From: an uncultured virus (IMG/VR IMGVR_UViG_3300035698_023758)
Lineage: Duplodnaviria; Heunggongvirae; Uroviricota; Caudoviricetes
Strand: one strand, 5' to 3'
Length of the DNA: 64,000 nt
IMG/VR virus record: IMGVR_UViG_3300035698_023758
In this document: piece by piece, positions 8,413 to 35,382 of the stretch
Position numbering within the stretch: position 1 is the stretch's first letter
How the letters are laid out: each line of letters begins with the position of its first letter
Notes under the pieces: generated by a model
Told to the model about the DNA's origin: nothing
What the model saw: only the letters and a program-made list of their open reading frames with translations
Database searches by the model: none
Program-made: the position numbers and the translations under genes

Positions 8413-8436
8413 ATTGATTAACTTTCGAGAATTAAG

Positions 8437-8510
8437 TAGGGATGGCAGGGCTCGAACCTGCAACCTGCGAATTAGAAGTTCGCTGCTCTATCCAATTGAG
8501 CTACATCCCC
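8437..8510 (-). tRNA. tRNA-Arg(UCU)
   Basis: GGGGATG/CATCCCT acceptor stem, GCTC D-stem, GCGAA-CT-TCT-AA-TTCGC anticodon arm, GCAGG-TTCGAGC-CCTGC T arm; CCA not encoded. Confidence 0.95.
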
Positions 8511-33013: not shown

Positions 33014-33430
33014 TTACGTTTCGTAAAACGCAGATAATTCAGCGACAATTTTATCAAGATCTTTTGGCAAATCGGACTGAATAACATCTTCTGGGCATTC
33101 TTTAGGAATTCTAGCATTCCTATATTCTGATAAGATATGCAGATATAAGTTGTTATGCTTATATTTACGAAACCCAGGTCCATAAAACGAATGCTTGTTA
33201 AGCTTGTGATAACCAAATTCGATATAATCTTCAGGGGCCTTTGGTTTTTCACCATTTCGATTATGGTCCATTTTACTTGTCCATCGAATAAAACGTTTAC
33301 AATCTTTGTATGCCCTTAACAAAATTTTGTGTGCTTCTTTAAGTTTAATAAACCCATCGTAATCAACAGGATGAAAACCAAAGTTGCTTTTGAATACATT
33401 TTGTGTTTGAGTAGTCATTTTTATCTCCAA
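33014..33430 (-). CDS. hypothetical protein downstream of the Pth2-like readthrough gene
   Basis: GGAGA SD before MTTQTQ; SNFGFHPVDY segment. Confidence 0.7.
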   Translation of the reverse strand: MEIKMTTQTQNVFKSNFGFHPVDYDGFIKLKEAHKILLRAYKDCKRFIRWTSKMDHNRNGEKPKAPEDYIEFGYHKLNKHSFYGPGFRKYKHNNLYLHILSEYRNARIPKECPEDVIQSDLPKDLDKIVAELSAFYET

Positions 33431-33503
33431 AAATTAATCAGTGTAACCAAGAACGGTGAATTTATATTACATCAATACTCGCAAAAATTTCTTATTGAAT
33501 TCT

Positions 33504-33560
33504 TCATGGGGCTCTCTCTTGGTAGGGCCAATCTTTTAGAGTTTTTAGTAGTCAGTGCAT
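33504..33560 (-). CDS. candidate readthrough mini-ORF MH(UGA)LLKTLKDWPYQERAP*
   Basis: ATG CAC TGA CTA C; same ACTGACTAC context as the upstream gene; ends R-A-P-UGA. Confidence 0.4.
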
Positions 33561-33564
33561 ATAT

Positions 33565-33897
33565 TTACCCTTTTACTAATTGTAGTTTATTGAAAAGCTT
33601 GCGACCATCGCCCATGATTGGTTCTGTGGCGATTGCAGTTAAAGAATTGTCAAGGTCTGGTTCAATAAATGTATTATATTGGATATTATTGATATTGAGT
33701 TTATCGATTTCTTTTTGCAAATTATTGGTTTTACAAAATACGATATGAGGATGTGGATTATTAGAATCTAATATACCCGTCCTAGAGGCTTCTAAAACAG
33801 CATGCATGCCCTGAACAGCTTGCTGCCCTGTGGTTAAATGACGATCGACGATAATATAAACGTGACCGCCATAATTTTGTAGTCAGTTCCAAGTCAT
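33565..33897 (-). CDS. Pth2-like peptidyl-tRNA hydrolase with an in-frame UGA at codon 5
   Basis: AGGAGGT SD, 6 nt, then ATG ACT TGG AAC TGA CTA; continues HVYIIVDRHLTTGQQAVQGMHA..FIEPDLDNSLTAIA..LFNKLQL. Confidence 0.8.
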
Positions 33898-33941
33898 ATT
33901 AGCACCTCCTTATTTAACGAAATATTTTTGATTAAAAAAGA

Positions 33942-34033
33942 ACTGGGTGTCCTTCACAAGCACCAGTGCTTCAGACGGACAATCTTAGCCACTTACAAAA
34001 ACCAAGATCGTTAGAAATGAAGGAACACCCAGT
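33942..34033 (-). ncRNA. candidate three-way-junction leader RNA upstream of the Pth2-like gene
   Basis: P1 ACTGGGTGTTCCTTCA/TGAAGGACACCCAGT, P2 GATCTTGGT/GCTAAGATT, P3 AAGCA/TGCTT, followed by a U-rich tract. Confidence 0.55.
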
Positions 34034-34080
34034 GTTCACCACTAACCAATTTAAAATACATTCGAAAATTATTCTAAAAA

Positions 34081-34599
34081 TCAGTTAATATTTTTACCTG
34101 TTCTATCAGAGTACAACCATTTATTGCCAGAATAATTGCCACCATTCCTGATTTTTAATACTGTAACAGAATCGGGAATATCTTCAAAACATTCATCTTG
34201 ATCATCAACATAAACATCAACACCAAGATCCTTAATAGCTTTAAATTTTTCATCAAGTCTTGGAACTATAACTAACTTATCAAAATAGATACCAAGTGAC
34301 ATAGCGTAATTTTCAGCCTTTTTTGAGTCATCCCTATGAGTGATTATTATTACAGCACCGGGCCATAAATTACTCAAAATCTTAAAAAATTCTGGGGATT
34401 CATCGAGAGTTCCGTCTAAATCTAAACCAAGAGTTGGGGCATCAAACATATTTTTAGTAATAGCACAAACATCTTTTTGTGCTTCACTAATATCATGAAT
34501 GGCTAAATTAGTTTTAAGTCGTGAAATGTGAAACAATACCTGATCAAGTGCCTGCATGACAAACTCACTACAAGAATTAAAAAAATGGTTTTCTGACAA
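34081..34599 (-). CDS. HAD-superfamily phosphatase
   Basis: LDLDGTLD motif I, ITHR motif II, conserved K, YVDD motif IV. Confidence 0.8.
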   Translation of the reverse strand: MSENHFFNSCSEFVMQALDQVLFHISRLKTNLAIHDISEAQKDVCAITKNMFDAPTLGLDLDGTLDESPEFFKILSNLWPGAVIIITHRDDSKKAENYAMSLGIYFDKLVIVPRLDEKFKAIKDLGVDVYVDDQDECFEDIPDSVTVLKIRNGGNYSGNKWLYSDRTGKNIN

Positions 34600-35302
34600 T
34601 TATGAAAGATTTGGAGATAAAGCACCAAATCCCGATAAATTATCTGACATTATAAGTCTCATATCAAAACACTTTGGAGCAATGCTCACAAAATATTTAG
34701 GTAGCGGAGACAATGGGATTGTTTATGAAGCCGATGACGGAGACATAATAAAATTCACAATAGATAAAAATGAGGCATTATTGTGGGCAAGACTTAAAAA
34801 CAAAAAAGTCCCTGGCATAATAATCCTAAAAGATGTAATAAATCTATCCAGCAGTAAGACAGGTGACACGCATGTCTTTGTCATAAAAGCTGAATCAGCA
34901 CCCCATGATGTTACACAAGAACAGTCTAAATTAATTCAAAATGCTTATAAAGAAACGAATCATCAAACACAACAAGATTTAAAGAAATTAAGAATTACCG
35001 GAAATAAAGAAGCATATATAAATAGAAGAGCAATAAATTTTGTGAGAGCATTCCAAAAAATCGCAGATATTGATCAAGCATTCGCAAATATCCCAGGTAT
35101 GATCATGGATATTGCTGATAAACACCAAGCATTTATTTATGATTTAAGACCAGACAATTTTAGACTCAATAAAGATGGGATGGTATTATTAACAGACCCG
35201 TCTGTGCCAAATCTTGTTGGTTCGCATGCTGAACCAGAAGAATTAACATATGAAGATAAAATAGATTTAACTCTTGGAACAATTCAATTGTTGTTTGAAT
35301 AG
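34556..35302 (+). CDS. protein-kinase-like (PKL/APH fold) protein
   Basis: LGSGDNGIVY Gly loop, IIKFT..E, YDLRPDNF, LLTDP. Confidence 0.75.
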   Translation: MTNSLQELKKWFSDNYERFGDKAPNPDKLSDIISLISKHFGAMLTKYLGSGDNGIVYEADDGDIIKFTIDKNEALLWARLKNKKVPGIIILKDVINLSSSKTGDTHVFVIKAESAPHDVTQEQSKLIQNAYKETNHQTQQDLKKLRITGNKEAYINRRAINFVRAFQKIADIDQAFANIPGMIMDIADKHQAFIYDLRPDNFRLNKDGMVLLTDPSVPNLVGSHAEPEELTYEDKIDLTLGTIQLLFE

Positions 35303-35371
35303 GCACGACAGGATTCGAACCTGCATCTTAAGAATTTGAAGTTCTTTGTTCTACCATTAAACTACGTGCCC
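35300..35371 (-). tRNA. opal-suppressor-type tRNA, anticodon UCA
   Basis: GGGCACG/CGTGCCT, GTTT-AATGGTA-GAAC, AAGAA-CT-TCA-AA-TTCTT, 5-nt variable loop, GCAGG-TTCGAAT-CCTGT; not tRNA-Sec geometry. Confidence 0.9.
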
Positions 35372-35382
35372 ATTTTATTGAA

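Follow-up and report, generated by a model that had tools for sequence, protein, structure and literature searches.

We analysed a 64,000-nt stretch of DNA (hereafter the window) from an uncultured virus of the Caudoviricetes (IMG/VR record IMGVR_UViG_3300035698_023758), and in particular a group of minus-strand elements between positions 33014 and 35371 that centres on a small gene with an in-frame TGA at its fifth codon. On the minus strand the group begins with a tRNA of the opal-suppressor type, anticodon UCA (35300..35371; ARAGORN, Rfam RF00005 and reading of the sequence), and continues with a Y-shaped hairpin followed by a U-run, here called the leader (33942..34033; folding), the Shine-Dalgarno (SD) sequence AAGGAGGT (33904..33911) and a gene of 110 codons predicted to encode a protein with the fold of peptidyl-tRNA hydrolase 2 (Pth2; 33565..33897). 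It ends with a mini open reading frame (mini-ORF), ATG CAC TGA (33504..33560), and a partner gene of 134 amino acids (aa), p134 (33014..33418). The tRNA, the leader, the Pth2-like gene, the mini-ORF and the partner gene had been proposed by a sequence-only reading of the window to form a circuit that depends on UGA readthrough, and all five were found in place.

The Pth2-like gene opens with ATG ACT TGG AAC TGA. Its ATG (33897-33895) is spaced 7 nt from AAGGAGGT, the TGA occupies 33885-33883, and the frame then runs to a TAA at 33567-33565. Past the TGA, no canonical start occurs in frame until 25 codons on, and that start lies downstream of both the first strand (b1) and an invariant QQAVQG motif, so that a product made from it would be without either. 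The mini-ORF follows 4 nt past the TAA; its own TGA is at codon 3 (33554-33552), and readthrough would give an 18-codon peptide with the C-terminus ..ERAP and a second TGA at 33504. Both internal stops are embedded in the 9-mer ACTGACTAC, which has 2 copies in the 64 kb, exactly at these two TGAs, with 0.14 expected and 3 of 100 shuffles reaching 2. The common context, pointed out by the sequence-only reading, holds for the window; as a general signal it did not stand, since relatives have different contexts.

The early TGA is retained in another sequencing run, where a contig (run X5) spans 33589-33894 with 0 differences from the window and has no sense codon at 33883-33885. The TGA of the mini-ORF (33552-33554) is spanned by contigs of runs X4, X6 and X7, again with 0 differences. 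Apart from these positions TGA behaves as a stop, as had been claimed. A crude, greedy, non-overlapping set of 107 ORFs covering 90% of the window, within which recoding was judged, ends in TAA 49 times, in TGA 41 times and in TAG 17 times, and ATGA overlaps are numerous. Long frames split by TGA show no excess over those split by TAA or TAG in the 64 kb, and the gated gene is the only place where a strong SD and a tiny ORF come together with a TGA and a long frame lacking a start. On these grounds, which cover the 64 kb, we rejected a recoding of TGA throughout (code 4): the window uses the standard code.

Related genes were found in 84 loci, 9 viral and 75 metagenomic, and 83 of them carry the anchor motif. 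We defined an early stop as an in-frame stop 2-8 codons after an SD-led ATG and 2-10 codons ahead of the first strand. Such a stop is present in 21 of the 83 anchored loci, including L010, the twin of the window, which is identical to it across 9682 nt, may belong to the same population and hence is not independent. When the window is counted once and four cultured phages are included, the early-stop loci total 25 and form 10 clusters at 55% identity. The N-termini in the cultured phages read MTH-TAG in Serratia phage BF, MAQ-TAG in Cronobacter phage GAP32, MT-TAG in Acinetobacter phage ME3 and ML-TAG in Salmonella phage Arash. The type of early stop corresponds to the anticodon of the suppressor in each of the 15 loci where a suppressor is visible: TGA with UCA in the window and L001; TAA with UUA in L016 and L017; and TAG with CUA in L014, L031, L018, L019, L021, L025, L030, BF, GAP32, ME3 and Arash. 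If these are reduced to eight units (2 UCA, 1 UUA and 5 CUA), random pairing matches throughout in 1 of 168 arrangements. In addition, L014 (TAG/CUA) and L016/L017 (TAA/UUA) belong to one cluster at ≥55% identity, which indicates that stop and anticodon were switched together. Both the retention of an early in-frame stop behind an SD in 25 loci and its agreement with the linked suppressor in 15 of 15 support the earlier proposal that the gene is gated by the phage suppressor.

The short peptide ahead of the stop is also conserved. The peptide MGH is kept through a synonymous change in L016 and L017 (GGT/GGC), and in a high-GC clade the pre-stop sequence M-x-x-P-F-A is kept with synonymous CCA/CCG/CCC and TTC/TTT codons; this conservation fits translation from the upstream ATG. 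In one relative the called protein starts right after the stop position, and its next residues, ..YGGHVYIIVDR.., are in common with the window. As in programmed readthrough, the stop is kept in diverged homologues without an alternative start, with three possible exceptions. The Pth2-like gene is absent from the annotation of BF and truncated in that of GAP32 and Arash (in Arash as a 50-aa 'peptidyl-tRNA hydrolase' fragment); annotation misses the gated gene because its leader is only 2-8 codons long. Serratia phage BF also has an in-frame TAG at codon 47 of the gene that follows the Pth2-like gene (L085, 3309-3900); this gene carries HD-like motifs (HAHG..EFHDCGKP) and is annotated as two small coding sequences (BF_0405 and BF_0406). 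L022, which has a UUA tRNA, contains a gene with an internal in-frame TAA, and in L016, also with a UUA tRNA, the gene itself ends in TAA, so that one codon would be both gate and terminator.

The family as a whole, gated or not, is found next to suppressors. A suppressor tRNA (CUA, UCA or UUA) is present in 57 of the 83 anchored loci, on the strand of the gene in 57 of 57, and suppressors account for 61 of the 271 tRNAs in the related loci. In 27 loci with ordinary starts (L002-L080) the 5' end of the suppressor is located -1 to +32 nt from the stop codon of the gene. No suppressor is present in 26 loci: in 21 of them the DNA extends for <1 kb on at least one side, and L006, L008, L045, L061 and L071 have none despite about 5-6 kb on both sides. 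On this comparison of sequences, the Pth2-like family is tied to suppressor tRNAs across phages. The last base of the stop codon is the first base of the tRNA in L043, L065 and L066, where excising the tRNA from a shared transcript would leave an mRNA that ends at or inside its own stop codon. L070, L071 and L072 encode identical Pth2-like proteins; a CUA tRNA is found in L072 only, 1136 nt downstream, and no suppressor was called in the 6 kb downstream in L071. Two loci carry phage transfer-messenger RNA genes less than 4 kb from the Pth2-like gene (L002, 1354-1719; L006, 2838-3183).

The tRNA of the window was placed by ARAGORN at 35299-35372 (minus strand; anticodon tca), and the Rfam tRNA model (RF00005) matches 35300-35371 with 74 bits against a gathering score of 29. 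It is 72 nt long, with a 5-nt variable region, a G1-U72 pair and the anticodon at 35339-35337; it has the cloverleaf and the stop-complementary anticodon that define a nonsense suppressor. ARAGORN labels it 'SeC'. A tRNA-Sec was rejected because the length of 72 nt and the short variable arm contradict the long arm and extended stems of that tRNA, and the label reflects the anticodon alone. The only other tRNA in the window is an Arg(UCU) (8436-8510, minus strand), and the anticodon arms of the two are nearly identical (..GAACTTCTAATTC.. in Arg(UCU), ..GAACTTCAAATTC.. in the UCA tRNA). The suppressor may have been derived from tRNA-Arg(UCU) by a single anticodon change; as to the amino acid that it carries, this likeness in the anticodon arm is only a hint. 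Across loci the suppressors show no single obvious scaffold, and the top non-self identity to the tRNA of the window is 0.66. A tRNA recorded as tRNA-Phe in Salmonella phage Arash (L120, 11298-11372) is read by ARAGORN as having the anticodon CUA.

The assignment of the 110-residue protein to the Pth2 fold draws on its sequence, a structural model, Foldseek, a family profile and PHROG. An AlphaFold 2 (AF2) model built from six relatives has a predicted local distance difference test score (pLDDT) of 89.2 and a predicted TM-score of 0.82. Foldseek gave 13 matches at E≤1e-3, each of them an entry of the Pth2 family (TM 0.55-0.71); 2zv3, 3erj, 1xty, 1q7s, 1rlk and 1wn2 have E-values from 1.5e-5 to 5.9e-4, and MJ0051, AF2095, S. 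solfataricus Pth2, human Bit1, TA0108 and PH1539 are among the proteins matched. A profile of 45 family sequences aligns with Pth2 2zv3 over its full length (E 1.1e-5), and PHROG families 34073 (5.3e-9) and 3668 ('hydrolase', 2e-5) were also matched. The window protein has no match in Pfam at E≤5 or in NCBIfam at E≤0.1, where a distant relative, L004, reaches 16.5 bits against a cut-off of 126. The description of the gene as Pth2-like was thus borne out by its predicted fold. Compared with canonical Pth2 (PF01981, TIGR00283), the protein has in common the fold and a remote full-length profile similarity, and differs in that it falls below every curated threshold, has two loops shorter and carries the motifs QQAVQG.HA and EPD. 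In the profile alignment to 2zv3, the conserved Lys and Asp of Pth2 align with an invariant Gln and Glu of the family and the Q-G-x-H-A stretch is kept; we take a Lys in the GK loop of Pth2 and the D-x-G Asp to be catalytic. Because the protein combines a Pth2 fold with altered motifs and scores under the curated thresholds, it is, as judged from its model, a diverged Pth2-fold paralogue outside the curated family (PF01981 / TIGR00283 / NF003314). Cronobacter phage GAP32 has a canonical PTH2 (GAP32_382) in addition to the diverged form, which indicates that the two are paralogues. At E≤1e-3 the family counts 4485 representative proteins, and at E≤1e-10 it counts 1908. In RAS14, Xoo-sp13 and XacN1 (L086, L119 and L121), proteins of 260-280 aa have the Pth2-like domain as their C-terminal part. 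The homologues of RAS14 and Xoo-sp13, whose sequences were read, have no early stop, and that of XacN1 is annotated as an 840-nt coding sequence; the suppressors of XacN1 are therefore not explained by the gating design.

The second protein of the operon, p134, had been listed at 138 aa as a member of the unit. Its likelier start is the ATG at 33418 behind a GGAG, which gives 134 aa; the ORF list has a TTG at 33430. As a conserved neighbour it could be confirmed by tblastn: it lies directly downstream of the Pth2-like gene in 13 of the 84 loci, and these 13 all belong to the early-stop subfamily. Its alignment shows the motifs RWGFHP.. and Y..ARRP, and its AF2 model has a pLDDT of 89.6. Searches of Pfam, PHROG, NCBIfam and PADLOC returned zero matches and the Atlas gave nothing usable; with the model, Foldseek found nothing at E≤1e-3 and the top VIA-align Z was 4.8. 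By alignment and model, p134 is a conserved partner without a known fold match. In 7 of 7 loci examined from the high-GC clade we found a GGAGG, then ATG-ACG/ACC/TTG-TAG and then the p134 frame, and in most of the high-GC loci (for example L018, L019, L021, L023 and L025) the ATG of p134 overlaps the TGA of the Pth2-like gene. An SD-ATG-NNN-TAG arrangement ahead of the p134 frame suggests that p134 is itself gated in this clade. The codon following the TAG of p134 is ATC or ATT in L018, L025 and L030.

The TGA-type loci differ in arrangement: in 4 of 4 (the window, L001, L011 and L012) an ATG-NNN-TGA mini-ORF is located 4-38 nt past the stop of the Pth2-like gene, and p134 follows it with an ATG of its own. 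The mini-ORF of the window, ATG-CAC-UGA between the two genes, may couple p134 to readthrough. The spacer between mini-ORF and p134 folds no better than its shuffles (z 0.48); in its minimum-free-energy structure the SD of p134 pairs with the readthrough part of the mini-ORF, which we note as an idea only in view of that z. The readthrough peptides of the four mini-ORFs end in or contain R-A-P, R-D-P-P or R-G-P-P, which resembles the arrest motifs RAPP and RAGP; with four sequences, a role as arrest peptides is an idea only.

The comparison did not bear out the leader as an element of the circuit. It forms a stable hairpin followed by six U residues (-50.9 kcal/mol, z -3.57), gives no Rfam family at the gathering threshold or at E≤1, and is missing in L001, where an upstream ORF ends 19 nt ahead of the ATG. 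We therefore dropped it as a conserved member of the unit; it looks like a terminator and is probably an intrinsic terminator or attenuator, most simply the terminator of the HAD-like gene upstream. That gene (34081-34599, minus strand) has a DLDGT motif, no Pfam match and a weak PADLOC match to ThsB/TIR-like proteins (E 0.0032). Between the tRNA and the operon, on the plus strand, is a 248-aa ORF with kinase-like motifs (GSGDNG.., DLRPDN; 34556-35302), which is matched weakly by PHROG 3809 (3.3e-4) and whose stop overlaps the 3' end of the UCA tRNA by 3 nt. The 2.4-kb region of the window has zero nucleotide matches to cultured phages.

Taken together, these data make it likely that the window carries a suppressor-dependent operon in a standard-code phage, in which the Pth2-like gene is gated by a phage tRNA. 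Ribosomes would initiate at the SD-led ATG at 33897 and meet the UGA four codons on. Where release factor 2 (RF2) wins, only a tetrapeptide would be made; where the UGA is read by the phage tRNA(UCA), translation would go on to the complete 110-residue Pth2-fold protein, so that its synthesis would track the performance of the suppressor in the infected cell. In the relatives, synthesis of p134 would likewise need the suppressor to win at an early stop. A gate so close to the start would be cheap, as failure costs a peptide of 2-8 residues and not a truncated domain. That readthrough takes place is a matter of inference, as are the inserted amino acid, the substrate of the protein and the sign of any feedback. 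The substrate is most likely a tRNA species that arises from suppression, that is, the peptidyl- or aminoacyl-suppressor tRNA, or the products of stalled or dropped-off ribosomes. The proteins might clean up the by-products of suppression, such as dropped-off or stalled peptidyl-tRNA, or they might act on the suppressor itself and close a feedback loop.

Several observations weigh against this interpretation. Gating is not universal in the family, and most of the remaining loci start with an ordinary ATG. Ten of the 25 early-stop loci have no visible suppressor; nine of these end at a contig edge, and L045 lacks a suppressor although about 6 kb is present on either side. In L001, L014 and L049 a truncated product is possible from a GTG or ATG that sits at the edge of strand b1. 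Some metagenomic relatives with internal in-frame stops may be recoded genome-wide, and there the match between stop and anticodon would be partly expected. Hydrolase activity is uncertain, given that a Lys and an Asp of the Pth2 motifs align with Gln and Glu. The UCA tRNA is 1.4 kb away from the operon, and the intervening plus-strand gene (34556-35302) makes co-transcription of tRNA and operon unlikely.

The same evidence bears on other explanations of the early stop. In an incipient recoding of stop codons, TGA would be read as sense wherever it falls in frame, with no special gating and no particular tie to the tRNA. Phage suppressor tRNAs together with in-frame stops are of a known kind, as described in the accessible part of Borges et al. 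(bioRxiv 10.1101/2021.08.26.457843), L022, L050, L052, L056, L064, L079 and L081 contain internal in-frame stops whose type matches, and an in-frame TAG is likewise present in the gene that follows in BF. However, the window has no other convincing in-frame TGA and 41 of its 107 ORFs end in that codon, the stop in the 25 loci keeps to a narrow position past the ATG and before the domain instead of being scattered, and the Pth2-like family is physically linked to suppressors; we consider such recoding unlikely.

A slightly lower probability is given to termination and reinitiation, in which the first 2-8 codons would be an upstream ORF and ribosomes would reinitiate on the Pth2-like frame without a suppressor. 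A short ORF with a strong SD does directly precede the coding frame, and weak starts are found past the stop (ATT in L016, ATA in L024, and ATT or ATC before p134 in L018, L025 and L030), but no start-like codon lies close to the stop in the window, L011, L012 and L017, leader and domain share one frame in every case, and a mechanism indifferent to the type of stop would not produce a match to the anticodon in 15 of 15 loci. That the gene is simply broken or misassembled seems very improbable: gene callers recover only an 80-aa remnant (P0002), and the gene is unannotated in BF and annotated as truncated in GAP32 and Arash, yet the TGA is present in contigs from other runs, the domain is well conserved, and the design recurs in 25 loci of 10 clusters at 55% identity.

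A further step from suppressor-dependent gating, possible in our view and on balance rather doubtful, is a self-tuning controller of stop-codon suppression made up of the suppressor tRNA, the Pth2-fold protein and p134. This pair of proteins would deacylate or recycle the suppressor tRNA, or act on termination at its codon, and since their own synthesis needs readthrough of that codon, the loop would set how much suppression takes place in the infected cell. The roles given here to both proteins, as well as the sensor or timer function put forward by the sequence-only reading, are hypothetical.

Two known systems resemble parts of the design. The prfB gene, which encodes RF2, has an early in-frame UGA and is autoregulated by escape through +1 frameshifting, which senses RF2. 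As proposed for the window gene, an early UGA in a termination-related gene makes the efficiency of termination set its own expression; in the window, a dedicated tRNA would instead provide the escape by decoding the codon, and the product is no release factor. The bar minigenes of phage lambda are two-codon ORFs that load cells with dropped-off peptidyl-tRNA, and the window likewise has an ATG-NNN-stop ORF beside a gene related to peptidyl-tRNA hydrolysis. Unlike bar, the equivalent ATG-NNN-stop in relatives is the in-frame start of p134, and for the mini-ORF at 33560 such an action would be hypothetical.

A close precedent is phage recoding. In the accessible part of Borges et al. (bioRxiv 10.1101/2021.08.26.457843), genes with in-frame stops depend on a phage suppressor tRNA, and a role in the timing of expression is proposed; many late and lysis genes are recoded, and a 'code change module' consists of the tRNA, an aminoacyl-tRNA synthetase and also a release factor. 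There, as proposed for the window, a phage suppressor tRNA translates phage genes with in-frame stops. In contrast to that system as far as the accessible text describes it, TGA stays a stop in the window, the gating concerns one small operon, at codons 3-9, the family to which the gated gene belongs is linked to suppressors in its own right, and UAA/UUA pairs occur too. The words 'hydrolase' and 'Pth' appear 0 times in the portion of that text available, supplements aside, where Table S2 could list more code-change genes. The part of Iyer et al. 2021 (PMC7824862) at hand reads jumbo-phage PTH2 as ribosome rescue after tRNA cleavage and, in that part, uses 'suppressor' 0 times; the canonical PTH2 of jumbo phages described there occurs near phage tRNA genes, like the diverged form. 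In the sections available to us, the XacN1 authors (PMC5852040) could not identify target genes for its two CUA tRNAs, and the Atu_ph07 authors (PMC6102473) mention a suppressor tRNA and note that UGA stops are abundant. Pth is mentioned in the RaK2 and Atu_ph07 (PMC6102473) papers, and in the available sections of the RaK2, XacN1 (PMC5852040) and Atu_ph07 (PMC6102473) papers no link is drawn between Pth and a suppressor tRNA; hydrolase is not mentioned in the available text of the theta-ribozyme paper. Our literature searches, supplements excluded, found no paper that ties a Pth2-like gene to suppressor tRNAs or describes the early-stop design.

The comparison between loci supports the core gating interpretation, which would represent a new variant of suppressor-dependent phage gene expression. 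Suppressor tRNAs recur in standard-code phages, where their targets are unclear, and the Pth2-like gene provides a concrete and conserved candidate target. The design appears to operate with all three stop codons, it would tie a large uncharacterised protein family (the 4485 representatives above) to suppression, and the cultured carriers BF, GAP32, ME3 and Arash make it directly testable. If the controller reading were true, opal, amber and ochre suppressors in thousands of phages would share one module, and this module would supply the natural target that has long been missing for the suppressor tRNAs of standard-code jumbo phages. The finding may also reveal the means by which a phage gauges or limits the change in its own code.

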